From sequence record KM190144: a DNA stretch of 64,000 nt; one strand, given 5' to 3'. Under the pieces are notes generated by a model that ran no database searches, was not told the origin of the DNA, and saw nothing but the letters and a program-made list of their open reading frames with translations. Below are positions 2,576 through 53,570 of this stretch, piece by piece; positions within the stretch are counted from its first letter, which is position 1; every line of letters starts with the position of its first letter. Origin of the DNA: Escherichia phage Av-05. A program made the position numbers and the translations under genes.

Positions 2576-4639
2576 ATGACAGAGGCTATTTTCACAGCCA
2601 GAAGAGAAGATGACTCTGTAGCTGTTAGCTTTGACTATGAAACAATATCAAACACAGCTATTGCTGGAAGAGATTATACACCCAAAGTAGGTACGGCAAC
2701 AATTCCTAAAGGGGAAAAGTCTGTACAGATACCTGTGGAGATAAAACAACATCCTAAAAACTCATTACCAAGAGAATTTACCTTGAAAATGAGTAATCCG
2801 TCTTTTGGTGCAAGGCTAGACAGGCTGGCTTCCAGATGTGTTATTAGCACCAAGGAGGATATGTCTGAGTTGGGGTGGGGAACAAAAGAAGAGAAAATGT
2901 TTCTACCTAAATATTGGACAATTGATTCTCAGCCCACAGAAAGTTGCTCTATAATATCTAATGGTAATATACTTACAGCTTATATGACTAATAGAACTGT
3001 AAGCGGTTTAGCAGGGGTTATTTGGAGCACAAAAGATAAGTATGATCATAAAGGGATCTCTTTTCAAGATCACACAGATCTTCGAAACGCTAAACTGTGG
3101 TTCGATATAGAGTTGGGCGACGGAATGCCTGATTTTAATAATGAGAAATTGACCCCGACATTAACTCTTAAACTTTTAGATGGGGCGACCCATTATATCC
3201 CTCTGTACGCTTATGCTGAAAATATCGGTGAGGATTATAAAAGAGCCACAATCAAACTTGATTTTTCAAATTTAAAATCCGGCCCTGATGTGAACGTGCC
3301 AGTGGATACCTCTCAAGTGGATCAGTTTTTCTTTTCTATGATATCTGAGAAGTATGCAGAAGGAGAAGATGTTGTCCCTAAAGAAAATCAGAACCTTATG
3401 TTGAAAATAACTCTTAAAGAGCCTGATACAGGCTATACAATGATGAGAGTTAATAATTTGACAATTCCTGCACATGATGTGCGTATGTGTACATCCTATG
3501 ATGATATGTATAACCTGACACCTGAACGAGTGGTGGACAACTGCTTGAAACTTGGGTACAGGGATATGATAAACCACTATAATGGTATGTCGCATTATTA
3601 CGAGTTCTCTTGGGAAAGCTCCGCATGGAAACTGAACAAAGATGTCCCTGTCAATAATGCAACCCTACAATGGATGAATAACTATTTCGCACTGACACGA
3701 GCAAATGGTTATAAGGTTATCAATTCTATTAGTTTTGAGTTGATGAGTACTGTATGTCCGGCAGAATGGGTGCAGCATGATTGGAATGATGCATTAGCTG
3801 AAACAGGATACACACCACCAAGTTGGGTATTATCTCCTAATATTAATGAGGGTATGCAATATATCCAAAGTGTGATAAATAAAATAGCAGCCACATGCGA
3901 ACAAGCTAACCAGGTTGTTATCATTCAGATAGGGGAGCCTTGGTGGTGGTATAATACTGCTACAAATTTACCTTGTGTGTATGATTATACTACAAAAGCG
4001 CGTTTTAATGAAGAGACTGGATTGTATGCTCAAGACATGGGGACAATTTATGACTTTAAGACCGGAACACCCTATGATGAGTATGTAGATTTTCTAAGAC
4101 AGTGCTTAGGGGAGCGAGTGGTAAAATTCGGTGCTGATCTTAAAAAATCTTATCCTAATGCAAAAATAACACTTTTACCGTTTTTACCATCCATTATTGG
4201 TAATGGTATTATGGAAAAGATAAATTTCCCTAGTGGTAGTTATACACCTGAGAATTTTGATCTCTATTGCTCCGAGTGCTATGACTGGTTACTCCAAGGG
4301 AAAATGGAAAAATCATTCCAAGCCATCACCATTCCGCGAGATGTCTTAAAATTTAAAGAAGATAAGATACATTATCTGGCAGGATTTGTTCCAGACGAAG
4401 GGCTAGCACCATTATACGGATTTGACCCTAATTCTAATTATAGAGAATATCTTTGGAAAATGATTATAGGGAACATTGTCCTTAATGAGTTTAAGTTTCC
4501 AGGTATTTATCAATACATATGGGCGTATCCACAAGTAATGCATGATTCTATAACAGTGCACAACTCTCAATCCGCAGTCTTTCATATGGGGCATACAGCA
4601 TTGAAAGGGTATTTAAAAGATACCCCACCAGAAGTTTAA
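2576..4639 (+). CDS. tail fibre/tailspike-like protein with Calx-beta-like N-terminal segment
   Basis: 687-aa ORF; N-terminal ...GRDYTP...GEKSVQIPVEI... resembles Calx-beta; large Trp/Tyr-rich C-terminal domain. Confidence 0.4.
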   Translation: MTEAIFTARREDDSVAVSFDYETISNTAIAGRDYTPKVGTATIPKGEKSVQIPVEIKQHPKNSLPREFTLKMSNPSFGARLDRLASRCVISTKEDMSELGWGTKEEKMFLPKYWTIDSQPTESCSIISNGNILTAYMTNRTVSGLAGVIWSTKDKYDHKGISFQDHTDLRNAKLWFDIELGDGMPDFNNEKLTPTLTLKLLDGATHYIPLYAYAENIGEDYKRATIKLDFSNLKSGPDVNVPVDTSQVDQFFFSMISEKYAEGEDVVPKENQNLMLKITLKEPDTGYTMMRVNNLTIPAHDVRMCTSYDDMYNLTPERVVDNCLKLGYRDMINHYNGMSHYYEFSWESSAWKLNKDVPVNNATLQWMNNYFALTRANGYKVINSISFELMSTVCPAEWVQHDWNDALAETGYTPPSWVLSPNINEGMQYIQSVINKIAATCEQANQVVIIQIGEPWWWYNTATNLPCVYDYTTKARFNEETGLYAQDMGTIYDFKTGTPYDEYVDFLRQCLGERVVKFGADLKKSYPNAKITLLPFLPSIIGNGIMEKINFPSGSYTPENFDLYCSECYDWLLQGKMEKSFQAITIPRDVLKFKEDKIHYLAGFVPDEGLAPLYGFDPNSNYREYLWKMIIGNIVLNEFKFPGIYQYIWAYPQVMHDSITVHNSQSAVFHMGHTALKGYLKDTPPEV

Positions 4640-4654
4640 GAAGGAGATACTTTT

Positions 4655-5725
4655 ATGGCTATACCAAGTATACCAATCGAGATTTGGGCAGCGGGAGATG
4701 TAATTCTCCCTAATACTCACGGGGAGAACAAAATAAGACCTATTGACGACCTTTGGTTAAAAGGTTGGGATATGGGAGAAAAACCAGCTTGTGAAGAGTT
4801 TAACTATGTTCTTCATATGATGACAAGTTGGATAAAATATGTTACAGGGGATCAAATTCCTGAATTAGATACAAGATTTTTAAGAAGAAGTGAAAATCTG
4901 TCTGATTTAGCGGATAAGGAAACATCCAGAGTCAACCTTGATGTGTGGAGCAGATCAGAGGCCGACAACCGTTACGTGAATGTAACGGGAGATACAATGA
5001 CAGGAGCTTTGTCATTGCCGAGATTGAATTTTCAACCTTCTGAGACAGATACTGCGTATATCACAACTACAAATCCGGCTTCTGACTGGACGTACTGGGA
5101 TTTTGTTCTTGGAGATAATCCAGGAACAGCAGGGACAAACGGTGTAGATTCTATACGTTTCCGATTCTCTCCTTCAGGTAACTCTGGGATGTTCACTATG
5201 ATGGAGCTTAATGCTATTAGCTCCTCAGCGGCTTTGTGTAAAGTAACAGGAAATGTTGTTGCCACAGGCACTGTACAAGGAACAAATGTTAATGGCACAA
5301 ATGCAACATTCACCACAACAAGAACATCCTCTTTGACGGCTACAGGGCAAATTCAAGGTCAAACTGTTGTAGCAACAAGCTCATTAACAACACCATATGC
5401 AAGGGTTAATGGGGAAGCGAATGTAAATTCACTGGTTGTAAATAATAACTCTGCAAGGGTTGCGGGGAGAAATATCGTAAGATCTGTTAATGGTGTAGGT
5501 GCTGACGGGAATGGTAATGTTAACTTACCAACAGGAAGTGTTCAGCAAATAAGACTTGGTAATCGTTTCTCTGCGGGGGTTGTTGAGTCTACGTTTTATC
5601 CTGGACATGTAATGACTGGCTGGGCATTTGGTAATAAAAAGGAATTGAGAGGTGGTACGTATTACACTGCTCCTTTGCAATATCTTGTGAATGGTCAATG
5701 GGTAACAGTAACAAATTTAAACTAA
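4655..5725 (+). CDS. tail fibre protein
   Basis: GDTMTG motif typical of phage tail fibres; Thr/Asn/Gly-rich beta repeats; followed by Tfa-like gene. Confidence 0.55.
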   Translation: MAIPSIPIEIWAAGDVILPNTHGENKIRPIDDLWLKGWDMGEKPACEEFNYVLHMMTSWIKYVTGDQIPELDTRFLRRSENLSDLADKETSRVNLDVWSRSEADNRYVNVTGDTMTGALSLPRLNFQPSETDTAYITTTNPASDWTYWDFVLGDNPGTAGTNGVDSIRFRFSPSGNSGMFTMMELNAISSSAALCKVTGNVVATGTVQGTNVNGTNATFTTTRTSSLTATGQIQGQTVVATSSLTTPYARVNGEANVNSLVVNNNSARVAGRNIVRSVNGVGADGNGNVNLPTGSVQQIRLGNRFSAGVVESTFYPGHVMTGWAFGNKKELRGGTYYTAPLQYLVNGQWVTVTNLN

Positions 5726-5728: not shown

Positions 5729-6280
5729 GTGCATATGTACAAAATCTATGGTAATTTTCAGCCTTACACACCTGAAAGAACAGAGTATAATTCGGCCTTC
5801 ATAGACACAGGGGCAGGTTTCCTTAAAGACAGTGATGGTAGAGATTGGTATGAATTATCAAAAGAACTAGCTGATAACAAAGCGGAAAACCAAAAATTTT
5901 TGCTTCTGACTTCGGATGATATAGTCCTCTGTGTCTCACAAGACCCAACCGCTTATTTTCCTTATGGAATGAAAATAGTAGTTATTGAGAATCTTACTGT
6001 AAACTTAGACCCTAAACTCGGGCATATAAAATTTACAGATGGAGAATTTTTTGATTATAACAAAGAAGCGGTAGAACAAGCTCAATCAATTATAGAAACA
6101 GAAATGATGTGGGCTTCTAATCAAATCTCTACCTTGGAGGATATGATCTCTATGGGATTGGGTACAGAGAGTAGAAAAAAATATCTGGAAAAATTAAAAG
6201 AGTATCGCATAAAACTGTTTTCGTTAGACCCTGAAGAAGATATGAATATTTCTTTACCAGACAGACCTTCTAAAAAATAA
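5729..6280 (+). CDS. tail fibre assembly chaperone (Tfa/gp38-like)
   Basis: 183-aa ORF directly downstream of fibre gene; Tfa-like C-terminus. Confidence 0.5.
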   Translation: MHMYKIYGNFQPYTPERTEYNSAFIDTGAGFLKDSDGRDWYELSKELADNKAENQKFLLLTSDDIVLCVSQDPTAYFPYGMKIVVIENLTVNLDPKLGHIKFTDGEFFDYNKEAVEQAQSIIETEMMWASNQISTLEDMISMGLGTESRKKYLEKLKEYRIKLFSLDPEEDMNISLPDRPSKK

Positions 6281-6291
6281 GGAGACAAGGA

Positions 6292-6606
6292 ATGTCTATT
6301 GACCTATTTGCTATCTTAAAAGCCGTATGGGGTGTATTGACGTTTTTCTTAGTTGGTGTTCTGAAGTTAACATACTCAGACTATAAAAAGACACAGCAAC
6401 GTCTTGATGAACTTGATAGGGACATCATAAGAATTAAGGCAGAGATGGTCACTAAAGAGAAACTTGATGAGATTCTTGATAAAAAACTGAAAGCTGTCCG
6501 CGATGATGTTTCAGATTTTAGAAAAGACTTAAAAGAGGATGTGAGCAGTTTGAGAGTTGATCTTATAGACCAGCTTAAAATTCTTATAGAGAGTCAAATG
6601 AAATGA
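6292..6606 (+). CDS. membrane-anchored coiled-coil protein
   Basis: N-terminal hydrophobic helix then charged heptad-like region. Confidence 0.35.
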   Translation: MSIDLFAILKAVWGVLTFFLVGVLKLTYSDYKKTQQRLDELDRDIIRIKAEMVTKEKLDEILDKKLKAVRDDVSDFRKDLKEDVSSLRVDLIDQLKILIESQMK

Positions 6607-7076
6607 TAAGTTCTGCACTGTACTTTATATGCTTTGCAGTGCTACTTCTTGATAATGACAAAGGGATCCGAGCCATGTCAGTATTTGGCATGGTTCATAT
6701 CGTGGCAGAGAATATACTGTACTGGTGGTTCTGTTCCCATATCTACGCATTTGACTTGTCACTCTACCTAACCTTTTGTTGGTTCTTGGATATATCTCTG
6801 ATTTTCTTTACTGCATGTGCTTTGACAGGATGGAGAAAAAAGCTAATGCTTACACTATCTCTTCCTGTTCTGTTTTGCCAAATTTTAGTTATGCAGTTCC
6901 CATTTATTTTACCAATCGCATTAGGCTTCACGATAAATTCATCATATCCAACATTTATGGAAGTTCTTTTATTATGCGCAGCATACAAAAGCGGCACAAT
7001 AAAAGAATTGCTTGAGACTTCTGTTGTTGTTGGTTTCATAATTATAGCCAGAATTGTTCCTGGAGTAAATTATTGA
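6603..7076 (+). CDS. polytopic membrane protein
   Basis: 157 aa with several hydrophobic segments; start overlaps upstream stop (ATGA). Confidence 0.35.
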   Translation: MISSALYFICFAVLLLDNDKGIRAMSVFGMVHIVAENILYWWFCSHIYAFDLSLYLTFCWFLDISLIFFTACALTGWRKKLMLTLSLPVLFCQILVMQFPFILPIALGFTINSSYPTFMEVLLLCAAYKSGTIKELLETSVVVGFIIIARIVPGVNY

Positions 7077-7091
7077 GGATTCTAATGTATT

Positions 7092-7355
7092 ATGCTAAAA
7101 TCAATATTGAAATTTTTAAAAGACCTTGTCAGATCCCCAGTAAATCCAGAGAAGGCCTCTCACACAAAATTTTGGAGTAATATCGGCTTGGCTGCAATGA
7201 CAGCAGTTTTTTTAGATTGGGGTTTCAAAGGCACATTGACGGAGTGGTATATGTGGGTGTATGCCCCCACAGTGGCTGCTCCACAGTTAATAAGTAAGTT
7301 AATATCTCTACGTTGGGGTGTAGAAGCACAACGTAGGGAAGAATCAGACCAATAA
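7092..7355 (+). CDS. small membrane protein (holin-like?)
   Basis: 87 aa, central hydrophobic segment, charged C-terminus. Confidence 0.3.
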   Translation: MLKSILKFLKDLVRSPVNPEKASHTKFWSNIGLAAMTAVFLDWGFKGTLTEWYMWVYAPTVAAPQLISKLISLRWGVEAQRREESDQ

Positions 7356-7365
7356 GGAGATTCTT

Positions 7366-9120
7366 GTGGCAGACATGACTAAATTTGAACAGGCGGTCGA
7401 TCAGGTTGTAGAAGATTCTGAACGCCTTCATAAAGTTGTCAATGGGGCAGCTACTGAAACTGTAGTTACAGAGGATGGCAGTCTGATACCTACAGTCAGA
7501 AAAGCATTTCTTGACAATTTATTCTTTAAAACACCTCCACTACCGTGGGTTGCTGGACAACAGGCAACGGTATTTAATCAGTTGTATGCTTATACAGGGG
7601 AAAGAGGTGTCCAATGGTGGTATGCACCCGGTGCGACAGAGAGTTCACCTGTAACACTACCTTCTAATCCAGTCAACAATGTTAACTGGAGATTATACAA
7701 CGATTCAGAATCTATGTCTCAGCTATTTGCGCCTATTGACAGCCCTATCTTTACAGGGAACCCTCAAGCACCAACACCATCAGCGGATAGTAACAGTACA
7801 ACTCTGGCAACAACACAATTCGTTACCAGAGCTATTGCTACCGCTTTGGCTGGAATTGCGGGTGGAAATGGTACATTCGCAGATCTTACTGTAACAGGTT
7901 TAGCTAGTCTTAATACGCTTTCTGTTGGCGGTGTATCAACATTTAATGGGCCTGTTAATGCTGACAACCAAACAGGAAAATTCCAGAATCTTATCTTAAC
8001 AAAAGATAATTCAAGCCTATCTTTTGCCTACAGTGATGATTCTAACCCGACGTTTATAAAAACAAGGCTTGAAGCATACTCAGCACAGACCCATCAGTTA
8101 CATACAGATATCATCATAAACGGTGTGCCAGTAGCAGACAATACAACAATGTCTTTCACAGGTCTTGGTAATAATACCTTCGACTATGTTTATATTACAG
8201 GCAACTCTAAAAAAGACCCATCTGAAGCTCGTCTCAAAGTTTCTGGGATGACAGAACTTGAAAACTTAAAGATCACAGGTACTGTAACAGGACTTTCTTT
8301 TTCTGTCAATGGGGAAGACATCTCGCCTAATTCTGTAACAACGGCACAAGGGGTTACTGTAGGTGGTGATTTACAAGTCAATGGTAACACCAATCTCAAC
8401 AGTACAACATGTGAGAGCTTAGAAGTTACTAACAACCTTGTTGTTAATGGACAAACCAGCCTCAAGGATTTCTCCTCTACAACTGGTAATGTCACAGGGC
8501 TATTAACTTTAGGGGAGGGATTCACTGCGACTGGTGACGGGTCTGTAGGTGGTGATCTAACTGTCAACGGAACTTCAACCCTTGGTAAGATAATATCTGA
8601 TGGTGATGTGACTTTAAATAGATCTTCTGGCACAACAACAGTAAACAATTTGGTTGTTAAGGGGACTGTATCTGGTATTACGTTTGATTTGACAGGACAA
8701 AACGTAAACGTAGCATCTCTTTCTGCTCAAAGCAGTGTAACGACAAATCAGTTATTTGTTAACGGCCAGGCACAACTTTCTTCCACCAATGTAAGTTTCC
8801 TAACTTTACAATCGGAAGAGGTTGACGATCCAACAGCAACATGGACACCAAGCGGCACATCCAACATTTATAATATCACAGTGAATAAAAATCTGACAAT
8901 CGGAGCATGGCCTGATCCACAGCAACCTTTCTCCGCTATGATTTATCTGACGCAGGATGCCACAGGTGGACACAGTGTAACTCTGGATCCTAATTATGTT
9001 GTCCTTAACAGTGAAACTGTTAATACGGCAGCAAATTCAGTTACCATCCTTCAATTAACCTTTAATGGTGTTGAAGATGGGGTTGTTGACACCATTATTG
9101 TCCGTAGACCACAACCATAA
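7366..9120 (+). CDS. tail fibre protein
   Basis: 584 aa; ...PIFTGNPQAPTPSADSNSTTLATTQFV... fibre motif; long Thr/Gly/Asn/Val repeat region. Confidence 0.55.
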   Translation: MADMTKFEQAVDQVVEDSERLHKVVNGAATETVVTEDGSLIPTVRKAFLDNLFFKTPPLPWVAGQQATVFNQLYAYTGERGVQWWYAPGATESSPVTLPSNPVNNVNWRLYNDSESMSQLFAPIDSPIFTGNPQAPTPSADSNSTTLATTQFVTRAIATALAGIAGGNGTFADLTVTGLASLNTLSVGGVSTFNGPVNADNQTGKFQNLILTKDNSSLSFAYSDDSNPTFIKTRLEAYSAQTHQLHTDIIINGVPVADNTTMSFTGLGNNTFDYVYITGNSKKDPSEARLKVSGMTELENLKITGTVTGLSFSVNGEDISPNSVTTAQGVTVGGDLQVNGNTNLNSTTCESLEVTNNLVVNGQTSLKDFSSTTGNVTGLLTLGEGFTATGDGSVGGDLTVNGTSTLGKIISDGDVTLNRSSGTTTVNNLVVKGTVSGITFDLTGQNVNVASLSAQSSVTTNQLFVNGQAQLSSTNVSFLTLQSEEVDDPTATWTPSGTSNIYNITVNKNLTIGAWPDPQQPFSAMIYLTQDATGGHSVTLDPNYVVLNSETVNTAANSVTILQLTFNGVEDGVVDTIIVRRPQP

Positions 9121-9126: not shown

Positions 9127-9151
9127 AGGCCACAGCAGTGGCCTTTGTTTT
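9127..9151 (+). terminator. rho-independent terminator
   Basis: hairpin AGGCCACagcaGTGGCCT then TTGTTTT. Confidence 0.5.
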
Positions 9152-9161
9152 AGGAGGATTA

Positions 9162-11105
9162 ATGTATCCAATCCCTTGTTTTTATATCATAATTTCCAAT
9201 AACCCTCTAGCCAACTCCATTTCCTTAACCTCCCTCGGTACGTGTCTTAAAGGAGGCAAAGCACAATTAATATGGTCTGTTGTGCCAGAAGGTGCAGACT
9301 TGCATGATATAACATTTACACCAGACAAACCGACAATTGTATCTGTTGATCCTACGGGGCTAGTATCTTTTCTTGAAGATGGTGATTTTATCATCACAAT
9401 GTCTGCAAAGACTGGCAAAGGAGATGAAGAAAAGACCTTAACAGCACAAATCAATGGGCATGTTGACACATTACGCATTGATGTTGATCCTATAGGCAGC
9501 AGAAGCATTAGTGATAGATTCTGGTTTGTCTACAAAGGCGACCCGTCTTTTGACCCAGGCAATCCGAATCCGAATATGATTGGCTTTAACATCTCCCCAG
9601 CAGAAGTTATGGAGGAGGATGACTTTTATGTCACCGCAGTTTCTGAAACACCTGATATATTAAGTCTGGCTCCTAGTGGTATCATTACATGTGTTAGTAA
9701 AGGTGTTGGGCATTGTGGCATGAAAGGAACCTATAAAGATGTGACAGTAACGACGCTTACCGATGTATATGTGGATATAGCACCAGCACTTATAAATCCG
9801 ACTGCTGTAGCCAACAGTTATGGTGACGTTAAGATAGCGTGGGATGTTCAATTTCCCTCCTCGGATGATATTTATACCGTAGAGGTTTATGACCCTAAAA
9901 TGCCAGATGCTGTGTGGAGTAAGAAAACCAAAGACACATTCGTATTCTTTGATGTTACAGAATCAGTGCCTATCTTTGGATTCGCCCCTACATATCTTGA
10001 TGTGGTCATCAAAGGATCAAATCCAGAAACACAACCTATAAGTCCTGATAGGAATATAACTGTTGACGACTCTTTTGTTAAAGAGGTGCTTGTTTTTGCT
10101 GGCGGTGATAACGCAGCAGCGCATTTTAACTCTTTTTCTGGTAGGGATAAAACAACCCAAAGTGCGACCACAGCACGTAATGAGTATGCTCTCAGCAAAG
10201 GGTTTTACCCAGCAGAAGTATTACCAATCAATGCCGCATTCATTACATCTTGTGCAGAAGCACAGGCAAACTCCTCTACAGGGTTAGCCACAAATTACTG
10301 GTATGACGTTAGTTCCTCCACAGCAGGTCCGTGTCTAACACAGTTCCTTGCGAAGGTTAAACCTTATAAGGATAAAATTAAGGCTGTTTTCTGGTCGTTA
10401 GGGGAACAAGATGCCATGGTAGCAGCAGCAAAACAAGAGGGAAAACATAGCGATGATGCTCGTTTTCAGACTGCTATGACCGCCATCTTTGAAAATATCC
10501 GATCTGTTATCACAAATCCTGAAGCCAAGATTGTATTGCAGACACTTGGCAGATGCTTTGATGATGATGTGGAAGTAGGTGGTGTTGAGTGGTATCGTTA
10601 TAGAAATATTCAACAACAGTTAGTGGTAGATTCCAAGGGTGGAGTTATAATTGGCTCTTGGGTTGATGGCGCTGAACACTACGGCAATTATGTTGTTTCA
10701 GGGGCAGGGGGTGGTTTAAGAATACACTACCGACCAACAATTTATAAGAATGCCGCAATATCCTTGGCTAACATGGAGGACTTGTCGAGCACACCTCCTG
10801 CTTGGGTGGATATGAAAGTTCCCATGGGAGGAAAGGCAGTAAGGCAAGCAAACCAAGATATTCTTTTATCATGGGATACCAGAGACTACAGCAAGTTCTC
10901 TCTTTTTAACTTTGATGTCCTGACAGGGGCTGTTATATCCCAACAAACATTGACCACCAATAGTTACACATTTACCTACGCAGATCAAGTAAAACAGTAC
11001 GGGTATGCTGCGGGTACAGTTTTGTTTGGTGTTGCATATGTTCAAACAACCAGTAAAGGTGATATTACATCTCCGTTGGCGAAATTCAATATTAATGTAG
11101 CGTGA
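9162..11105 (+). CDS. tail fibre/tailspike protein
   Basis: ATG at 9162 with TAGGAGGA SD (track start 9138 is a GTG inside the terminator hairpin); large beta-rich protein. Confidence 0.45.
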   Translation: MYPIPCFYIIISNNPLANSISLTSLGTCLKGGKAQLIWSVVPEGADLHDITFTPDKPTIVSVDPTGLVSFLEDGDFIITMSAKTGKGDEEKTLTAQINGHVDTLRIDVDPIGSRSISDRFWFVYKGDPSFDPGNPNPNMIGFNISPAEVMEEDDFYVTAVSETPDILSLAPSGIITCVSKGVGHCGMKGTYKDVTVTTLTDVYVDIAPALINPTAVANSYGDVKIAWDVQFPSSDDIYTVEVYDPKMPDAVWSKKTKDTFVFFDVTESVPIFGFAPTYLDVVIKGSNPETQPISPDRNITVDDSFVKEVLVFAGGDNAAAHFNSFSGRDKTTQSATTARNEYALSKGFYPAEVLPINAAFITSCAEAQANSSTGLATNYWYDVSSSTAGPCLTQFLAKVKPYKDKIKAVFWSLGEQDAMVAAAKQEGKHSDDARFQTAMTAIFENIRSVITNPEAKIVLQTLGRCFDDDVEVGGVEWYRYRNIQQQLVVDSKGGVIIGSWVDGAEHYGNYVVSGAGGGLRIHYRPTIYKNAAISLANMEDLSSTPPAWVDMKVPMGGKAVRQANQDILLSWDTRDYSKFSLFNFDVLTGAVISQQTLTTNSYTFTYADQVKQYGYAAGTVLFGVAYVQTTSKGDITSPLAKFNINVA

Positions 11106-11110: not shown

Positions 11111-11141
11111 AAATAAAAGGGAGCTAAAAGCTCCCTTTTAT
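11111..11141. terminator. bidirectional terminator between convergent late (+) and early (-) blocks
   Basis: hairpin AAGGGAGCtaaaAGCTCCCTT flanked by A-run and T-run. Confidence 0.55.
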
Positions 11142-35058: not shown

Positions 35059-35604
35059 TTATGCGTCAGGATGCTTGTAAAAAATATGATTCCCAACCTT
35101 CACTGTTCTCACCATAACTTTTGTCCAAGATGGTCTAACAGTAGTTGCATGATAGTACGTTGCTGATTTTGTGTAGTCAAGAGCTTTGTATAAACTTTTG
35201 TGGTCTTTATGCAATCTCATCAAGATTTTAGCATAAAATTTAGCCCTCAACCATCTATCCTTTTCATAAACTTTAAAGGATTGCCCACCGAATGTCCAAG
35301 AGAATTGCCCTCGCTGATAAACTACTTTCTTGATAGTACGAGGGAAATTTTTGTCATCCTTTCTGTTCAGCGTGGCAAACGCGACACCCATCATTCCATA
35401 ATCGCCTTCACCTCTTCCTTCTTTATACATATTACAGGCAAGAATATTAAGCTCTGTATCATTCTTCTTGCAAATGTGAAGAACTCTGGGCTTCTTTGCA
35501 CTTTCTTTGGCTAGAACAGGAGTAATAGACAGAGAAAGTGCACAGCAAACTGCAAATAATAAAGATCTTATTTTCAAAACTAACTCCAGACAAATAAGCC
35601 CCAT
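35059..35604 (-). CDS. secreted SleB/CwlJ-like cell-wall hydrolase
   Basis: signal-peptide-like N-terminus; GRGEGDYGMMGVAFATLNR and YQRGQFSW motifs; start uncertain. Confidence 0.45.
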   Translation of the reverse strand: MGLICLELVLKIRSLLFAVCCALSLSITPVLAKESAKKPRVLHICKKNDTELNILACNMYKEGRGEGDYGMMGVAFATLNRKDDKNFPRTIKKVVYQRGQFSWTFGGQSFKVYEKDRWLRAKFYAKILMRLHKDHKSLYKALDYTKSATYYHATTVRPSWTKVMVRTVKVGNHIFYKHPDA

Positions 35605-45825: not shown

Positions 45826-45928
45826 AATTTAACCACACAGGGAGGCTAACGCACGTAGTCTCCCATATGTCCCCATTTCAGGGACTATGTTATAGTAGTC
45901 CTAACAAAACAACAAAATGGAACCTAAA

Positions 45929-46192
45929 ATGAAAACTTTCAACGAATTCATCTCAGAATCGTCTGGTGTGAAAATTAACAAAGCGGTCAATCAGGTTATT
46001 GCTGATATTCTTAATTTGTATAACATTGACTTAACTCCGCATATCACGCTTGGTAACAAACGAAACTTTTTCATATTTAACACATCCGAACTTGACGAAA
46101 ATCAGTTCAATAACATTCAACGTTTTGCGAATGATAAAGGTCTTCGACATGAGCCTGGTGGCTATAAAAAATACGCAATATATTTGAAATAA
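45929..46192 (+). CDS. internal-protein-like small protein
   Basis: N-terminus MKTFNEFISES resembles the T4 internal protein capsid-targeting sequence. Confidence 0.4.
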   Translation: MKTFNEFISESSGVKINKAVNQVIADILNLYNIDLTPHITLGNKRNFFIFNTSELDENQFNNIQRFANDKGLRHEPGGYKKYAIYLK

Positions 46193-46252
46193 AGGTATAC
46201 AAGCCTATAGGACTATGTTATAGTAGTCCTATTAAAACATGAGGAGAATATT

Positions 46253-46558
46253 ATGAAATTAGGCGAAACCAACCGAATTGGTCTTTTTACAATATTTGCA
46301 TCACCTTTTTACGCAGCTCTTTCTGTTGCAGTATTACAAAAGGCTTACGATATGGATGGTGTTCCTGGTTTTGTATTCTTATCACCATTTTTATTATTCG
46401 TCGGGGCTTTGTTATTATATGCCACGACTAGTTTTGACCATAACGTCTGGGTTAATTATAAATGTAAATTGTCTGAAGAAGAACATGCAGAAGCTCGTAA
46501 AAAAGCTATTGAATCTACCAATCTAGAAAATTTCATTAAAGAATGCCGAGGAAAATAA
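46253..46558 (+). CDS. membrane protein
   Basis: hydrophobic helices. Confidence 0.3.
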   Translation: MKLGETNRIGLFTIFASPFYAALSVAVLQKAYDMDGVPGFVFLSPFLLFVGALLLYATTSFDHNVWVNYKCKLSEEEHAEARKKAIESTNLENFIKECRGK

Positions 46559-46559
46559 T

Positions 46560-47246
46560 ATGAATAGTTCTAAAGTGTTTAATAGTCAAGCTCGTGCAGT
46601 AGGTGGTTTTGCTCATAACGTACAAAATGACCAAATCAAAAATGAACCAATGTTCTTTAACTGTGATTTGAGTTTTGCTTGGGATAACGGTGGTCCAATT
46701 ACTCGTAGCTTTATCCAAAATCTCCCTGACGATTGGAAAGGCTCGGATGTAGTATTTGATTCACGAGTCCACATGCTGATGCCTGGTTGGTATCCTGCTA
46801 TTCCTGGATATCACCATGATGATGTTCCTCGCCCTGATATTCCAGTCGGCCAACACTTTATTACTGCAGGACAACCTGACTATGATAACCCTCGTTACCA
46901 TTCTGAACATATTCTTGGTCTTGTTAACGCTGATGTGTGTCCTACTCATTTTGCAACAGGAACTGCAGAGTTCAGTCAGATTCCTGATGGCGAACTTATC
47001 TATCGCCAGTGGCACAAAGAAGTCCTCGAAAAAATTGAAAAAGGTGAACTAGAGAAATGGGAAGCTCCGGACCGTACTCTTCTTCAGTTTGATTGGCAAA
47101 CATGGCACACTGGTTCTCGTGCAATTAGTAATGGATGGCGTTGGTTCGGACGTGTATCTCGTAATACAGACCGAGTTAAAAAGATTACTAATGAAATTCG
47201 TGTCAATGCTCAAGTTTATCTGGAATTCCCTATGGAAGGCTGGTAA
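46560..47246 (+). CDS. hypothetical protein
   Basis: 228-codon ORF, His/Asp/Trp-rich. Confidence 0.35.
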   Translation: MNSSKVFNSQARAVGGFAHNVQNDQIKNEPMFFNCDLSFAWDNGGPITRSFIQNLPDDWKGSDVVFDSRVHMLMPGWYPAIPGYHHDDVPRPDIPVGQHFITAGQPDYDNPRYHSEHILGLVNADVCPTHFATGTAEFSQIPDGELIYRQWHKEVLEKIEKGELEKWEAPDRTLLQFDWQTWHTGSRAISNGWRWFGRVSRNTDRVKKITNEIRVNAQVYLEFPMEGW

Positions 47247-47737
47247 TGATTAACAAAACATATTGGTCTAATATAGACGACGGTAATGAAGGTATTTCGT
47301 ACTATTCAGTAGATTGGACAGGATGTCCATCCTACTTAGTGAAACGTATTTGTCAAGAATTTAAAATCGACCAGCCAGCAGGTATTATCGTGAACAGATA
47401 CATTAATGGATATCAACCTATCGATGAAGTAATACGAACAACTCAAGCTGAGCTTGAAAAGTTTTTCAATAAGTGCCAATGGATAACAGGATGGATTATA
47501 TTTGTACCGTCGGTATGGTTTTTTAGTACTAAAGTAAGTGCCTTTGCCATACCAGATATTATCGCTATATTATTAGCATCTACTATCGTAAGTATTATTG
47601 GTGGTATTATTGGTGGAGGTACTATAGGCATCATTATTAATCTTGTTAAAAGTAGTTTACAGGAACGTAAAGACAAGATAAAGGCCAAGAATAATGAAGT
47701 TGAACGTTTTATTACCGAATGCAGGAATTTGAGATGA
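47246..47737 (+). CDS. membrane protein
   Basis: hydrophobic segment with GG(I/T)IG repeats. Confidence 0.3.
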   Translation: MINKTYWSNIDDGNEGISYYSVDWTGCPSYLVKRICQEFKIDQPAGIIVNRYINGYQPIDEVIRTTQAELEKFFNKCQWITGWIIFVPSVWFFSTKVSAFAIPDIIAILLASTIVSIIGGIIGGGTIGIIINLVKSSLQERKDKIKAKNNEVERFITECRNLR

Positions 47738-47970
47738 GTATAGCAATTTACATTAAATCAGAATCATGTGATAGTTATCTGTACACATATGATAAAGATG
47801 TGTCAGAAGAAAAAATCAAAGACGATCTTAATATGGACCTTGATATGTTCTGTCCTATTGCAGATTACAAACTTGCGGTTTCTAATAGTGAAAGTCCATC
47901 TAAAGAAACGCGCATTGAAGAATTTATGTCCGAATTAATGGCCAAATCATGGGACCGAGATGATGAGTAA
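47719..47970 (+). CDS. hypothetical protein
   Basis: 83-codon ORF. Confidence 0.3.
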   Translation: MQEFEMSIAIYIKSESCDSYLYTYDKDVSEEKIKDDLNMDLDMFCPIADYKLAVSNSESPSKETRIEEFMSELMAKSWDRDDE

Positions 47971-48418
47971 GAAAAATAAAGTGAAAGAACTATCAGCCGG
48001 TATTATCTTCATGACAAAAGATAAAGAGTTATTCATGGGCCGTGTAACTGGTTCTCGTCCTAAAGGTGCATTAGCTCATCGGTGGGATATTCCTAAAGGC
48101 CGTGTCGAGCCAGGTGAATCTCCTATTGAAGCCGCTATTCGTGAATGCGAAGAAGAAACTGGGTTTACACAATATGACCCTGCCTTCCTGAAAGACCTAG
48201 GCGAACATCATTACTCAGACAATAAGAATATTCATCTATTCCAATATACCATCCCTGTAGAGCACGAGCAATTCAGAAACAGTGTTTGTAATTCCTATCA
48301 TACATTCCCAGACGGACGACAGATTCCTGAATTTGATGCATTCGCTTTAATTAAACCTTCTCAATGGGAATATGTAATGGGCAAATCATTATATAAGGTG
48401 CTCACTACCATCCTATAA
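47960..48418 (+). CDS. nudE: Nudix hydrolase
   Basis: Nudix box GRVEPGESPIEAAIRECEEETG; immediately upstream of e as in T4. Confidence 0.6.
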   Translation: MMSKKNKVKELSAGIIFMTKDKELFMGRVTGSRPKGALAHRWDIPKGRVEPGESPIEAAIRECEEETGFTQYDPAFLKDLGEHHYSDNKNIHLFQYTIPVEHEQFRNSVCNSYHTFPDGRQIPEFDAFALIKPSQWEYVMGKSLYKVLTTIL

Positions 48419-48425
48419 GTAATAA

Positions 48426-48451
48426 ATACCTCCTATAAACGTAGGAGGTAT
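48426..48451 (+). promoter_or_regulatory. SD-sequestering hairpin with late-promoter-like TATAAACG in the loop
   Basis: perfect inverted repeat ATACCTCCTA/TAGGAGGTAT; 3' arm is the ribosome-binding site of e. Confidence 0.5.
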
Positions 48452-48452
48452 T

Positions 48453-48941
48453 ATGAATATATTTGAAATGCTTCGTAATGACGAAGGTCTTAGACTGACT
48501 TTATACAAAGACACCGAAGGCTTTTGGACGATTGGCATAGGCCATTTAGTAACAAAGAACCCGTCTTTAGCCGTAGCTAAAGCTGAACTTGACAGAATGA
48601 TCGGTCGTAAATGCAACGGTACAATTACCCTTGATGAGGCTGAAAAGCTATTTAATGAAGACGTCGATAAAGCCGTTCGCGGAATCTTGGGTAATGCTAA
48701 ACTTAAACCGGTATATGATTCTTTAGATGCGGTTCGTCGATGTGCATTGGTCAATATGGTCTTTCAAATGGGTGTAGCAGGCGTTGCTGGTTTTACTAAT
48801 TCTCTTCGTATGCTTCAACAGAAACGTTGGGATGAAGCGGCAGTAAATCTAGCCCAATCTAAATGGTATCGTCAGACACCTAATCGCGCGAAACGCGTAA
48901 TCTCAACATTTAAAACAGGAACTTGGAAAGCGTATATATGA
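48453..48941 (+). CDS. e: T4-type lysozyme (endolysin)
   Basis: about 80 percent identical by eye to T4 lysozyme (MNIFEMLR...EGLRL...YKDTEG...TIGIGHL...). Confidence 0.9.
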
Positions 48942-49219
48942 AAACATACAGTGAATTTTTATCAGAATCTATTCTTAACGAAGCTACTGACACATTTGCA
49001 ACTAAGCTAGGTGCAGCTTTAGTTGAAGCTGAAAGTCTATTAGCACGTATTTCTGAACTTGCCAGTAAGATAGATACTCGCAAATTTGAGCGCACCAGTG
49101 ATATCGTTAAGCTTGAAGCACTGCTGCGTATGTGCGATAAACCGGAAGAAATCGCTAAGAACGGCTCGTTAATGAAACAACGTCTTGAAAAATATATTTC
49201 AGGCGCTTCAGAAAAATAG
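48938..49219 (+). CDS. internal-protein-like protein
   Basis: N-terminus [11 protein letters not shown]; ATG overlaps the e stop (ATGA). Confidence 0.5.
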
Positions 49220-49220
49220 T

Positions 49221-49250
49221 GTTTACTTCCTCCAAGGGTTTTGATACTAT
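49221..49250 (+). promoter_or_regulatory. T4-early-type promoter
   Basis: -35 GTTTAC, 17-18 nt spacer, -10 TACTAT; spacer is inverted-repeat partner of the denV SD. Confidence 0.5.
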
Positions 49251-49277
49251 ACATCTATCAACTACTTGGAGGAAATT

Positions 49278-49691
49278 ATGACTCGTATCAATTTAACACT
49301 TGTTTCTGAACTGACCGACCAACATCTTATGGCTGAGTATCGTGAATTACCTCGTGTATTCGGTGCAGTCCGTAAACATGTTCAAAATGGTAAACGTGTA
49401 AAAGATTTTAAAATCTCTCCAACATTTATTTTAGGCACGGGCCACGTAACATTCTTTTACGACAAACTCGAATTTTTACGTTTACGTCAAATCGAGCTAA
49501 TAGCTGAATGTTTGAAACGTGGTTTCAAAATCAAGGACACGACAGTCCAGGATATTTCCGACATTCCTGTAGAATTTCGTAATAATTATGTCCCGTCCGA
49601 AGCGTCCATTGCGATAAGTCAAGCACGCTTAGATGAAAAAATTGCTCAACGTCCCACTTGGTACAAATACTATGGTAAATCAATTTACTAA
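49278..49691 (+). CDS. denV: endonuclease V (pyrimidine-dimer glycosylase)
   Basis: near-identical by eye to T4 endonuclease V ([12 protein letters not shown]...[16 protein letters not shown]...). Confidence 0.9.
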
Positions 49692-49697
49692 GGAAAA

Positions 49698-49958
49698 ATG
49701 AAAATGTATCAAGAATTTATCACTGAAGCGGATGCCAAAGACCCCAAATTTAAAGTTAAAGCTTTCATTGGTGATGCGGAAGACTTTGGCTCATTAAAAC
49801 GTAATGGGTATTCTTTCTTAGGTGGCGATGGTAAAGAAATCAACACCTATGCAAAACGTAGTGAAATTGCTTATGTTGTAGCAAGTCCTAAAGTAGATGC
49901 TGATGATATTGGATACGATTTTAACAACTTCGGAATTATTTCTGGCGGTAAAGCTTAA
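49698..49958 (+). CDS. internal-protein-like protein
   Basis: N-terminus MKMYQEFITEA. Confidence 0.5.
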   Translation: MKMYQEFITEADAKDPKFKVKAFIGDAEDFGSLKRNGYSFLGGDGKEINTYAKRSEIAYVVASPKVDADDIGYDFNNFGIISGGKA

Positions 49959-49961
49959 ATT

Positions 49962-49991
49962 GTTTACGCTTAAGTATTAATATGGTATAAT
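49962..49991 (+). promoter_or_regulatory. T4-early-type promoter
   Basis: -35 GTTTAC, about 18 nt spacer, -10 TATAAT. Confidence 0.45.
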
Positions 49992-50021
49992 TACTCTATC
50001 AAAACAAACAAGGAAACAAAA

Positions 50022-50600
50022 ATGAAAACATATAAAGAATTTATCGCCGAGGCCTTTGCAGGAAAAGCTCAAGGCATTAATAAGGACGAGTGGAATTATC
50101 GTGGCGGAAATGGTTTTGACCCTAAAACTGCTCCACTTGAACGATATCTAGCCACAAAAGCTTCTGATTTTAAAGCCTTCGCTTGGGAAGGACTACGCTG
50201 GCGTAACGATCTAAATATTGAAGTTGACGGACTTAAATTTGCTCATATTGAAGATGTTGTTGCTAGTAACTTAGACGCAGCTTTTGTTAAAGCCGACAGT
50301 GACCTTCGTCGCTGGAATTTAAAACTGTTCTCTAAACAAAAAGGCCCGAAGTTTGTGCCTAAAGCAGGTAAATGGGTCATTGATAATAAATTGGCTAAAG
50401 CTGTCAACTACGCTGGTCTTGAATTTGCCAAGCATAAATCATCATGGAAAGGTCTTGATGCAATGACTTTCCGTAAAGAATTTGCCGATGTTATGGCTAA
50501 AGGTGGCTTTAAGGCAGAAATAGATACCTCTAAAGGTACGTTTAAAGACGCTAATGTTCAGTACGCTTACGCCGTCGCTAATGCGGCCCGTGGTAATTAA
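50022..50600 (+). CDS. internal-protein-like protein
   Basis: N-terminus MKTYKEFIAEA matches the T4 capsid-targeting sequence. Confidence 0.5.
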   Translation: MKTYKEFIAEAFAGKAQGINKDEWNYRGGNGFDPKTAPLERYLATKASDFKAFAWEGLRWRNDLNIEVDGLKFAHIEDVVASNLDAAFVKADSDLRRWNLKLFSKQKGPKFVPKAGKWVIDNKLAKAVNYAGLEFAKHKSSWKGLDAMTFRKEFADVMAKGGFKAEIDTSKGTFKDANVQYAYAVANAARGN

Positions 50601-50629
50601 TAAGGCCTATTTACATTTAAAGGAAACAT

Positions 50630-50959
50630 ATGAAAACGTATCAAGAATTTATCACTGAAGTTACATTATCTGCGGAACAGAAAGCTGCTATCGAAGAAGG
50701 TAAAAATCCCAAAGTAACATATAAAGTAAATGGTAAAGGCGTTTTTGATGGCTTGGTTCAAGACCCTGAATTGAAAAAAGCTCTTTCTAAAACTAATGCA
50801 TACTTTGCTCCTAAATTTAACGCAGCTGGTGTACTTATTGGATTGGATGTATTCAACTCTAAAGGTGTTCTATCTAATGCCTTTGGTTATGCCGCTAACA
50901 AAATTACCAAAGCCGCATGGGAATCCAATACCAAACAAGCTCAAAAGCCTAGAGTATAA
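50630..50959 (+). CDS. internal-protein-like protein
   Basis: N-terminus MKTYQEFITEV. Confidence 0.5.
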   Translation: MKTYQEFITEVTLSAEQKAAIEEGKNPKVTYKVNGKGVFDGLVQDPELKKALSKTNAYFAPKFNAAGVLIGLDVFNSKGVLSNAFGYAANKITKAAWESNTKQAQKPRV

Positions 50960-51133
50960 TTCTTGCCTAATAAAGGGAAACGCAACCTCTCCTCATGAAC
51001 GTCGAGTCCTCTGAGTGATGTACCTTTTCCAACCTGTAATAAGGTCGAGCCCAAGTGCGGTAATGGGTTTACATAGCGAGTCGAAGGACCTAACATGTGC
51101 CATGGAATGGCCCCAACCTAAAAGAGAAACTAA

Positions 51134-51673
51134 ATGAGAACATTTTTAACCGGACCTTATCTATCCCTGATGAATGCTTTTACACACCATTCTGATGCTA
51201 GAGTAGAAGAAATTTGTAAGAACGGTTATGCCCCACCATTTGAAGACGTACTCAAGCAGTACTGTACACTTCGTTTAGACGGCGGCAGACAATCAGGTAA
51301 ATCGACCGCAGTAACTAATTTTGCTGTTAATTGGCTGTATGATGGCGGAACAGTTATTGTTCTTTCTAATACTTCAGCTTATTCTAAAATTTCTGCTGGC
51401 AACATTAAAAAAGAATTTTCTCGTTATTCTAGCGACGATATTCGATTCCGTTTATTTACTGATTCTGTTCGTAGTTTTATTGGCAATGAAGGTTCTAAAT
51501 TCCGTGGATTAACGCTTTCTCGTATTCTATACATAATTGACGAGCCTATTAAAGCTCCTGATATGGATAAGATTTACAATGTACATATTAAAACAGTCCA
51601 ACACTGTTGCAAAAGCAAATATTGCAACGGCGGTAATGCTCGTCCTCAATTTTTTGTGATTGGAATGCAATGA
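51134..51673 (+). CDS. P-loop NTPase-like protein
   Basis: Walker A GGRQSGKST and Walker B-like ILYIIDEP. Confidence 0.4.
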   Translation: MRTFLTGPYLSLMNAFTHHSDARVEEICKNGYAPPFEDVLKQYCTLRLDGGRQSGKSTAVTNFAVNWLYDGGTVIVLSNTSAYSKISAGNIKKEFSRYSSDDIRFRLFTDSVRSFIGNEGSKFRGLTLSRILYIIDEPIKAPDMDKIYNVHIKTVQHCCKSKYCNGGNARPQFFVIGMQ

Positions 51674-51978
51674 TGACCACTATTGAAGTTTTTGAGTATT
51701 GTTATAACAGCCCAGTATGCAATAAAAGGGCTCTTGTAGAAAATTACGAGATTTACCATTTTAAACCTAAACGATATCGTTTGACTAAAGGTCCGTTCGC
51801 AGGGCAGCAGGTTCTTTGTACTGCTCCTAATGCACGACTGATGACTAGTATTCCGCATTTCAAAATGGAATTTATTGATGGGCCATTTAAGGGATTAATC
51901 ACTCAAAGTTTAATGGCGTTTAATTCCGACCCATTTTTGATTAAAGAAAAAACTTGGATAAATTTATTTTCTAATTGA
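51670..51978 (+). CDS. hypothetical protein
   Basis: 102-codon ORF. Confidence 0.3.
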   Translation: MMTTIEVFEYCYNSPVCNKRALVENYEIYHFKPKRYRLTKGPFAGQQVLCTAPNARLMTSIPHFKMEFIDGPFKGLITQSLMAFNSDPFLIKEKTWINLFSN

Positions 51979-51984
51979 GGTTAT

Positions 51985-52347
51985 ATGAAAGCATATCAAA
52001 TTCTTGAAGGTACACATAAAGGCACTATTTATTTTGAAGACGGTACTCAAGCCCGGATTATTGTCTCTAAGACTTTTAAAGAAGACGCTATTGTAGACCC
52101 GGAAATTTTCTACGGTTTGAATGCCCGTGAAATTGAAATTGAACATCAACCTAAAGTTAAAATTGAAGGTGGTCAACATCTGAACGTTAACGTTCTGCGT
52201 CGGGAAACTCTGGAAGATGCAGTTAAGCATCCGGAAAAATATCCGCAGCTGACCATCCGTGTATCCGGTTATGCAGTTCGCTTTAACTCTCTGACTCCGG
52301 AACAGCAGCGCGACGTTATCGCTCGTACCTTTACTGAGAGTCTATAA
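51985..52347 (+). CDS. autonomous glycyl-radical cofactor (GrcA/YfiD-like; T4 Y06I-type)
   Basis: C-terminal 60 aa with RVSGYAVRF glycyl-radical motif appears identical to E. coli GrcA; codon usage shifts mid-gene. Confidence 0.7.
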
Positions 52348-52571
52348 TGGCTAAATTGATTATAGAAGGGTCTGAAGATGTTTTAAAATGTTTTGCCGCC
52401 TGGTTTAGTTGCTCAGGCGAGCAATCATTCACTGAAGCATTTAGAATGGGTGATATTACTGGAAACTATCCGACAACTGATATCATTGTACGTGGATATG
52501 GTATTAATGAGCCTATCCAATTGGTCGAATATGACCTTGCCACCGATGAGGAAATTCCTTATGTCGATTGA
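52347..52571 (+). CDS. hypothetical protein
   Basis: 74-codon ORF. Confidence 0.3.
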   Translation: MAKLIIEGSEDVLKCFAAWFSCSGEQSFTEAFRMGDITGNYPTTDIIVRGYGINEPIQLVEYDLATDEEIPYVD

Positions 52572-52827
52572 AGATATTAAAGGCTACAAGCCACATACCG
52601 ACGATAAAATAGGTAAAGTGAACGCTATTAAAGATGCAGAAGTCCGTCTTGGATTGATGTTTGATGCTCTGATTGAAGAAGCCTATATCTTGAAAGAAAA
52701 TGAAACAGAGCATCAAACCAAAGAAGATATGGATGCAGTGCAGGCTCTTAAGTACGCTAAGCAACATCTAAAAGAAGCCAGCATGTGGGCCTGTCGTGCA
52801 GTATTTCGTCCTGAGGAAAAATACTAA
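52560..52827 (+). CDS. hypothetical protein
   Basis: start at ATG 52560 overlapping the upstream gene end. Confidence 0.3.
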
Positions 52828-53042
52828 TGGCTTCTACTATTACTGGGTTATTGGACTTCCAGGAAAAGGTCAACAAAATTTGTAGTGAATACTTAAAGTA
52901 TCTTGAAGAAGACCTTGAAGATTGTAAGGAAGAAGGCGAAGAAGATTATGCTGACCAGCGTCGTCGCCAAATCGAAGAGATGAGACATTTCGCCGATATG
53001 GTATCTAAAGAATCTTGGACTTTAACTCCATTTTATCAATAA
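52827..53042 (+). CDS. hypothetical protein
   Basis: 71-codon ORF, acidic. Confidence 0.3.
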   Translation: MASTITGLLDFQEKVNKICSEYLKYLEEDLEDCKEEGEEDYADQRRRQIEEMRHFADMVSKESWTLTPFYQ

Positions 53043-53046
53043 AGTA

Positions 53047-53075
53047 GTTTACTTCTCCTCTAGTTGTGTTACTAT
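53047..53075 (+). promoter_or_regulatory. T4-early-type promoter
   Basis: -35 GTTTAC, 17 nt spacer, -10 TACTAT; spacer TTCTCCTCTAGTTG is the perfect inverted repeat of CAACTAGAGGAGAA at the regB SD. Confidence 0.55.
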
Positions 53076-53103
53076 AGACCTGTCAACTAGAGGAGAAATA
53101 AAA

Positions 53104-53562: not shown

Positions 53563-53570
53563 AGGTAAAC

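Follow-up and report, generated by a model that had tools for sequence, protein, structure and literature searches.

Between the tail-fibre assembly (chaperone, Tfa) gene and the next tail-fibre gene of Escherichia phage Av-05 (sequence record KM190144) is a trio of membrane-protein genes, here called A, B and C, which we tentatively predict to be a late lysis-timing module, with C as the holin and A and B as its regulators. This prediction, a possible one and our best single guess, is based on the architecture of the proteins, their position in what is likely to be a late operon, their conservation and the fact that no holin has been confirmed in phages of this group, and takes no support from homology. 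The copy in the window, as we call the whole stretch of 64,000 nucleotides analysed here, is structurally nothing new, the trio having been annotated in relatives as conserved membrane proteins since 2011. What comparative analysis adds is that A and C form a core to which B is accessory, that the genes hold fixed positions, that they are decoupled from fibre variability and that they are absent from one virion proteome.

The three consecutive plus-strand genes occupy exactly the coordinates given to them in an initial annotation of the window (Table 1), and the architecture described there, a transmembrane (TM) segment with a coiled coil in the first product, a polytopic second product and a small membrane protein as the third, holds in hydropathy analysis. 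Separated by spacers of 11–15 nucleotides or overlapping, the genes are packed into a long plus-strand baseplate/fibre operon. The ribosome-binding site of A (AAGGAGA) is located in an 11-nucleotide spacer, the stop codon of A and the start codon of B overlap as ATGA, the ribosome-binding site of C (GAGGA) lies 12 nucleotides 5′ of its ATG, and that of the following fibre gene (AAGGAG) begins at the stop codon of C. Each gene has a full-length PHROG match (A, phrog_5345, 8.7e-46; B, phrog_7451, 2.2e-72; C, phrog_1322, 1.5e-30). On the basis of these matches, and of low non-synonymous divergence (pN) against saturated synonymous divergence (pS), A, B and C are genuine genes and not chance open reading frames (ORFs).

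Table 1 The membrane-protein trio and other features of the window (aa, amino acids)
Feature	Coordinates	Strand	Details
Gene A	6292-6606	+	104 aa; ORF and translation
Gene B	6603-7076	+	157 aa; ORF and translation
Gene C	7092-7355	+	87 aa; ORF and translation
Upstream tail fibre gene	4655-5725	+	phrog_4465, 7.5e-155
Tail-fibre assembly (chaperone, Tfa) gene	5729-6280	+	Pfam Caudo_TAP 1.5e-08; phrog_136 5e-41
Next tail-fibre gene	7366-9120	+	phrog_4549, 5.7e-223
Tail protein gene	9138-11105	+	Big_2 and SASA-esterase matches, weak, mostly sub-threshold
Bidirectional terminator	11113-11141	.	13-bp stem; ends the plus-strand structural operon that holds the trio
Sheath-like protein gene	2576-4639	+	687 aa; TIM-barrel_NCTSP 5.5e-77, NCTSP_N 2.2e-18, Calx-beta domain
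SleB-like hydrolase gene	35059-35604	-	Pfam Hydrolase_2 2.1e-19
Phage_lysozyme ORF (T4 e-type)	48453-48941		Inside the T4-like block

The same gene order, from Tfa to the next fibre gene, is found in PVP-SE1 (gp44/43/42), CB7 (CB7_33-35), GEC_vB_MG (gp045c-043c) and 18-1-2/TH18 (peg58-56), whose trios are direct homologues with no substantive difference save the allele of the upstream Tfa and fibre genes. Notes in the PVP-SE1 record describe gp44, gp43 and gp42 as membrane proteins with one, four and one TM domains, respectively, and the CB7 and GEC_vB_MG products are labelled putative membrane proteins. Protein identity is 97–100% to the 18-1-2/TH18 group and, to Seunavirus, ~81% for A, 67% for B and 85–91% for C. 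At the nucleotide level this region is closest to Escherichia phages 18-1-2, 19-1-2, 24-2-1 and vB_EcoM_TH18 (Vequintavirinae), with 96% identity over positions 6278–7400; the match to 18-1-2 begins at 6278 only, the Tfa and fibre genes upstream in the window being a different allele.

A and C occur in Vequintavirinae, Stephanstirmvirinae and Aeromonas relatives, and the gene context, tabulated for 46 loci from GenBank and IMG/VR, follows three orders. Shared by Seunavirus, Certrevirus, Mydovirus and the window is the order wedge, gpI-like, (sheath-like), fibre, Tfa, A, B, C, fibre. The rV5-like phages have fibre, Tfa, A, second fibre copy, C, fibre, with B absent; the copy that fills the B slot is a diverged duplicate of the upstream fibre gene that shares its N-terminus and is not accompanied by a separate Tfa (Escherichia phage FFH2, locus L005, 3940–4983; L031–L039), which makes the order Tfa–A–fibre′–C–fibre. 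The third order, that of Stephanstirmvirinae (phi92, phAPEC8-like, ZCKP1, KP13-16), is tailspike, C, wedge, gpI-like, fibre, Tfa, A, tailspike. Here the A and C homologues, labelled 'lipoprotein' (gp149) and 'membrane protein' (gp144) in phi92, are distant, and A still follows Tfa, whereas C has been relocated directly 5′ of the wedge gene, whose start it overlaps, and B is absent; in KP13-16 the gene after A is an unrelated polytopic ORF with no detectable similarity to B (hhalign probability 0.2%). An Aeromonas Plateaulakevirus has the order Tfa-like, A, B-like, C. Through all these arrangements A is directly 3′ of Tfa at every locus with a recognised Tfa homologue, and C is directly 5′ of a structural gene (fibre or baseplate wedge) at all loci, often overlapping its start. 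No relative of C was found in another genomic context among the 37 IMG/VR loci, all 37 of which share the baseplate/fibre setting and are complete genomes of ~135–153 kb or fragments thereof.

The number of phage records with a tblastn match is 373 for C, 220 for A and 105 for B. For hosts without confounding FelixO1-like phages, to which this comparison was restricted, the number of records with C equals that with the wedge gene (Klebsiella 40/40, Cronobacter 15/15, Aeromonas 15/15); C appears essentially universal in the group and looks like a core gene. Identities of C and of the wedge protein are 51% and 56%, respectively, to rV5-type homologues and 32–36% and 31–33% to those of phi92 type. 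Between the window and one Seunavirus homologue, where pS is at least 0.74 (saturated), pN is 0.062 for C, 0.127 for A, 0.161 for the gpI-like protein, 0.164 for the baseplate wedge, 0.203 for B and 0.499 for the adjacent Tfa; by this measure C is under tighter constraint than the wedge, an essential baseplate protein. Variation in A and C does not track that of the neighbouring hypervariable receptor-binding module (Tfa and fibres), which argues against a receptor-specific role and points to a conserved partner, located in the host inner membrane or belonging to the conserved proteins of the phage itself.

The candidate holin, protein C, fits the hallmarks of such proteins in its small size (87 residues) and in its layout of an amphipathic basic N-terminal helix, two weakly hydrophobic helices with a short loop between them and a charged C-terminal tail (RWGVEAQRREESDQ). 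On the Wimley–White octanol scale it has two moderately hydrophobic segments, residues 27–45 (-5.1 kcal/mol) and 52–70 (-4.8 kcal/mol), which recur across four divergent lineages, including the rV5-, phi92- and Aeromonas-type homologues; holins scored on the same scale fall in the same range, which serves as a rough yardstick only. Homologous to C are PVP-SE1 gp42, CB7_35, rV5 YP_002003531.1 and phi92 gp144, and the family shares the invariant motif S-H-T-K-F-W-S-N...E-W...L-R-W-G. All 15 of the 15 family members match phrog_1322, which is labelled 'membrane protein' and filed under 'moron, auxiliary metabolic gene and host takeover'. In BME3, a protein of 81 residues was put forward by the authors of that study as a candidate holin of topology II; close in length to the phi92-type C proteins (80–82 residues), it may be their counterpart. 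A single-sequence AlphaFold model of C is poor (predicted local distance difference test (pLDDT) 61.2).

Three leads concerning C were discarded. DUF2644 (PF10841), a precomputed label on a few relatives, reaches only E ~0.1 and 13 bits in a direct scan against a cut-off of 22, and we found no paper that mentions the family. A likeness of 'L-x-E-W' in C to the T7 holin corresponds to an hhalign probability of 2.1%. Some homologues begin M-L-K-S-I-M-K, suggestive of a dual-start motif; the second methionine is not conserved, its place being taken by leucine (TTG) in the window, and in other lineages the start lies one codon further upstream.

Protein A comprises a single strongly hydrophobic N-terminal segment (residues 5 to ~23–24, Kyte–Doolittle 2.22) and, after this TM helix, ~75 residues of helical coiled coil with 20 K/R and 20 D/E. 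Its homologues are PVP-SE1 gp44, CB7_33, rv5_gp031 and, distantly, phi92 gp149; the alignment shows a conserved motif, L-E-K-D-L-I...M-V-T-K-D-x-L-D, and the families of window type and phi92 type match each other's PHROGs. Acidic or neutral residues precede the TM helix and basic ones follow it immediately in every lineage, so that, by the positive-inside rule, the coiled coil most likely faces the cytoplasm. Family databases (Pfam, NCBIfam, PADLOC and PDB sequences) returned only generic coiled-coil matches for A, such as ATP synthase b and LeoA, the latter (E 0.008 in PADLOC) being coiled-coil noise, and for B and C their matches did not rise above noise. In Aeromonas phage 4L372D (locus L006) the TM helix (4179–4316) and the coiled-coil part (4217–4498) of the A homologue lie in different frames, a split that points to a frameshift in sequencing or a wrongly called start.

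A TM helix followed by a charged coiled coil is also the architecture of an i-spanin, and 4 of the 14 A-family members weakly match Rz-like spanin PHROGs, albeit at the level of coiled coils (best 8.8e-4). We nevertheless regard it as very improbable that A is a second i-spanin-like protein that spans the periplasm by means of its coiled coil. A conserved pair of i-spanin and o-spanin, encoded beside TerL, is already present in the group, and in the i-spanin of this pair, PVP-SE1 gp78, lysines precede the helix, the reverse of the pattern in A. Comparison of A by hhalign gives probabilities of 0.55% with gp78 and 0.13% with P2 LysB, no plus-strand ORF of at least 30 amino acids is embedded in A, and no lipobox ORF is found in or adjoining it.

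Protein B has 4–6 hydrophobic helices and is homologous to PVP-SE1 gp43 and CB7_34. Its family has invariant charged or polar residues (E36, N37, D51, D63, K79, K80, E120, E135 and R150), several of which fall within or beside predicted helices in the family alignment, and a precomputed table lists PF26221 for every B relative. The single-sequence AlphaFold model contains seven helices at low confidence (pLDDT 51.7), too poor for a fold search. B is dispensable, being missing from rV5-like and most phi92-like phages, and the ORF in the B slot of the Aeromonas Plateaulakevirus shows weak likeness to it (hhalign E 0.0026, probability 12%). The B-slot ORF of 4L372D (4520–4960) and the B homologue of Salmonella phage SPLA5a (locus L002, 6312–6785) are unannotated.

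The initial annotation offered three functions for the trio, holin-like, superinfection exclusion or receptor modification, a range that our analysis narrows without settling: the first is the best single guess, the second is weakened and the third is disfavoured. Modification or masking of lipopolysaccharide, capsule or another receptor by B, alone or with A and C, has a very low probability in our estimate, for all that the trio lies among genes for receptor-binding proteins and that polytopic B carries conserved charged residues in or beside its predicted helices. The reading is disfavoured because A and C are kept in phages that infect seven genera (Escherichia, Salmonella, Klebsiella, Cronobacter, Erwinia, Pectobacterium and Aeromonas) whose receptors differ, while Tfa and the fibres diverge, and because B matches no transferase or flippase family (GtrA-like, acyl- or glycosyltransferase) in Pfam at E up to 0.1 or in NCBIfam at E up to 1. 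The absence of B from the phages named above also counts against such a role, as does the lack, in A, B and C, of signal peptides or lipoboxes suited to the outer membrane.

Production of the trio is likely to be late and together with the baseplate/fibre operon. No convincing promoter is present within the trio, the sole nearby plus-strand match (5763–5791, 10/12) falling within Tfa, and the window as a whole shows no enrichment of promoter-like matches (47 found, 36.2 ± 6.6 expected). The T4-type late promoter TATAAATA has 4 matches in the window against 4.9 expected, none of them near the trio, and the only internal terminator hit, a weak one with a 6-pair stem, is inside C. The equivalent block of the PVP-SE1 record carries no promoter annotation, and a matching bidirectional terminator is marked there after gene 40; the rV5 counterpart of the block belongs to transcription unit 27–81. 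Tandem mass spectrometry of CB7 virions confirmed CB7_27-31, 36 and 37, and neither CB7_32 (Tfa) nor CB7_33-35 (A, B and C); as small membrane proteins are hard to detect, this absence is weak negative evidence.

The lack of a credible promoter of its own also bears on exclusion, since expression is then probably late, when exclusion is least useful. That the trio blocks the DNA of secondary phages or otherwise manipulates or protects the late envelope, as T4 Imm and Sp do, we consider unlikely. Imm and Sp are, like the trio, small inner-membrane proteins of a large virulent myophage, and Imm resembles C in architecture, with 83 amino acids, hydrophobic helices and a charged tail. Further points for exclusion are the likeness of the trio to T4 Sp, which has an N-terminal anchor and a soluble domain, and the placement of known exclusion genes among tail genes (HK97 gp15, lambdoid cor, and T5 llp beside the receptor-binding gene). 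The PHROG category of C also points this way. However, no homology of C to Imm was detected (hhalign probability 0.47%), T4 imm is an early gene, and PADLOC gave nothing for B or C and only the coiled-coil noise for A. A and C are moreover near-universal and under strong purifying selection, unlike the usual accessory exclusion gene.

The case for a lysis function starts from a gap in the group. Authors working on these phages have repeatedly reported an endolysin and spanins and no confirmed holin, none being reported for KPP-1; for CB7 and BME3 neither a lysis cassette nor TM proteins beside the endolysins are reported. In CB7, rV5 and PVP-SE1 the spanins are beside TerL. The endolysins differ by genus (Fels-1-like in PVP-SE1, T4-lysozyme type in rV5, T5-like peptidase in CB7), and that of PVP-SE1, gp146, has no signal sequence and no membrane proteins as neighbours. 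Endolysins that are swapped, with no membrane protein beside them, suggest that the holin is encoded elsewhere and retained. By our own count the PVP-SE1 record labels ~26 products as membrane proteins (gp32, which is named a transporter, also carries TM notes), and notes of similarity to rV5 are attached to just four of these: gp42 (C), gp44 (A), gp57 and gp78. The large gp57 is probably the tape-measure protein, and gp78, read against the published account of CB7, is identified as the i-spanin. The i-spanin aside, A and C are the only small PVP-SE1 membrane proteins noted as common with rV5.

According to the mechanism we propose, the trio would be made late from the baseplate/fibre operon as inner-membrane proteins that do not enter the virion. 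C would enter the membrane as a hairpin of two helices, its N- and C-termini both cytoplasmic, and accumulate harmlessly, then oligomerise and depolarise or permeabilise the membrane, a lesion that would release or activate the muralytic enzyme of the phage. A would be held by its N-terminal helix with its coiled coil most likely in the cytoplasm, and polytopic B, which is dispensable in some lineages, is translationally coupled to A. Both A and B would influence the moment at which C triggers, much as antiholins or accessory regulators do.

Several observations weigh against this proposal. C matches no holin family in Pfam, NCBIfam, PHROG or PDB, and hhalign probabilities are 2.1% with T7 gp17.5, over just 10 aligned residues, and 0.07% with P2 Y. 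None of its segments exceeds the Kyte–Doolittle threshold, and Octopus and Phobius gave only one TM domain for PVP-SE1 gp42, which leaves the second helix of C uncertain. Holin candidates have been published elsewhere in the group: rV5 ORF129, with 78 amino acids, two strong TM domains, a basic tail and a place in the transcription unit of the endolysin, and CB7_82, beside the SleB-like gene. ORF129 is found in 116 records only, all of them rV5-like Escherichia/Shigella phages or records mislabelled Campylobacter, and this restriction means that the holins of the group may be genus-specific. The polar motifs of C, invariant at the predicted cytoplasmic face, and its coupling to the wedge gene in phi92-like phages suit a structural partner, and its very slow evolution suits one equally. 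B, finally, is not universal.

Genes of rV5 type for A, C, the wedge and ORF129 (the last up to 100% identical to that of rV5) are present in about 20 MG0656xx records whose labels name them as phages of Campylobacter jejuni; these records look like mislabelled or contaminant Escherichia rV5-like genomes.

The distance from the lysozyme gene, which the initial annotation had brought in as an argument, is unsound as evidence because that gene (Table 1) sits in a T4-like segment of a chimeric window and belongs to a different genome backbone. Complete relatives still separate the trio from the lysis genes by tens of kilobases: in PVP-SE1 the trio is at 28 kb, the spanins at 60.6–61.3 kb, lysozyme gp146 at 102 kb and SleB at 145 kb. 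The trio is therefore not adjacent to endolysin or spanin genes, an adjacency that T7 shows not to be obligatory: there, holin gene 17.5 directly follows fibre gene 17, the spanin genes flank the terminase genes and the endolysin gene is elsewhere. T4 likewise has its holin gene t after fibre genes 37-38. T7 gp17.5 and T4 T are thus small late membrane proteins encoded after fibre genes, a position like that of C, and class II holins have in common with C the layout of two helices and a charged tail. C has no sequence relation to gp17.5, and T4 T, with one TM domain and a large periplasmic domain, is unlike it. A further parallel is offered by Y, lysA and lysB of P2, which correspond in architecture to C, B and A (a small holin-like protein, a polytopic lysis-timing protein of ~140–160 amino acids and a bitopic coiled-coil protein); they are lysis genes of a late operon, in a phage whose baseplate/fibre module is, as in the window phage, of the J-I-H-G type. 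No homology between the two sets was detected (hhalign probabilities 0.07% for Y, 0.81% for LysA and 0.13% for LysB), the likeness of B to LysA being one of size and polytopic architecture only. The trio lacks an endolysin or o-spanin gene, and LysB, an i-spanin, is periplasmic, in contrast to the predicted cytoplasmic orientation of A.

The sole peptidoglycan hydrolase in the rV5-like part of the window is the SleB-like product (Table 1), which is encoded directly upstream of an rIIA-like ORF and has an N-terminal hydrophobic signal or anchor ending VLA|KE; the N-terminus is the same in PVP-SE1 gp243. This product could be a secreted or signal-anchor-release endolysin, and if it is, the kind of holin that the group needs would change.

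Should A or C prove to be a holin or a regulator of one, it would define a new holin family, add a case to those of T4 and T7 in which the timing of lysis is set from the fibre operon, and offer a means of engineering that timing in these phages. The rV5-, PVP-SE1- and phi92-like phages are widely used in biocontrol and phage therapy with an incomplete lysis pathway and an unconfirmed holin.

The strict position of A after Tfa and of C before a fibre or wedge gene, kept over three gene orders, suggests morphogenesis instead. As an inner-membrane platform, A and C, with B if present, would use their cytoplasmic surfaces to bind the N-termini of fibres or conserved parts of the baseplate wedge, chaperone or localise the assembly of baseplate and fibres and be left behind in the membrane, a role to which we assign a fairly low probability. 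Consistent with it, C evolves at about the rate of the wedge by the identity comparison and has its invariant polar motifs at the predicted cytoplasmic face, the charge pattern of A implies a cytoplasmic coiled coil, reversed relative to the i-spanin of the group, and the trio is missing from the CB7 virion, as is the Tfa chaperone. However, A and C do not co-vary with the divergent Tfa and fibres, and no tailed phage is known to us to have a fibre or baseplate assembly factor that is integral to the membrane. An assembly role, if true, would be more surprising than a lysis role. Less probable again, and best called improbable, is that A and C (with B if present) form an inner-membrane docking platform, distinct from both classical holins and exclusion systems, that tethers late tail assembly and possibly couples completion of the virion to lysis as an assembly–lysis checkpoint; the cytoplasmic coiled coil of A and the cytoplasmic motifs of C would contact conserved baseplate or fibre components. 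Such a platform would be the first membrane-integral morphogenetic or checkpoint module for a contractile-tailed phage.

The window itself is chimeric. Positions 1 to ~45.88 kb and 57.17–63.44 kb are rV5-like, and inserted between them is a T4-like block (45880–57170, ~11.3 kb) that is 100% identical to Escherichia phage phiC120 and 96–98% identical to RB69-like T4-type phages. The junctions are near 45882–45889 and 57169, the match to rV5-like relatives stops again near 63435–63441, and the two rV5-like segments that flank the block are not adjacent in related genomes. The probable cause is mis-assembly of a sample that contained more than one phage. Sizes that are odd for the group are also seen in the closest GenBank records, those of 18-1-2, 19-1-2 and 24-2-1 being 77–80 kb and that of TH18 134 kb, and megablast with positions 14001–39000 also matched dozens of records of Stx-converting (lambdoid) phages, unexpected for an rV5-like backbone.

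In the operon that holds the trio, the tail protein encoded by the last gene before the terminator has weak matches to the Ig-like Big_2 domain and to a region like that of SASA sialate-O-acetylesterases, and may be a receptor-deacetylating enzyme. The sheath-like protein encoded further upstream is probably a glycan-binding or glycan-degrading baseplate appendage; its matches are to a Calx-beta domain and to domains named for a 'non-contractile tail sheath protein', the phage itself being contractile-tailed.

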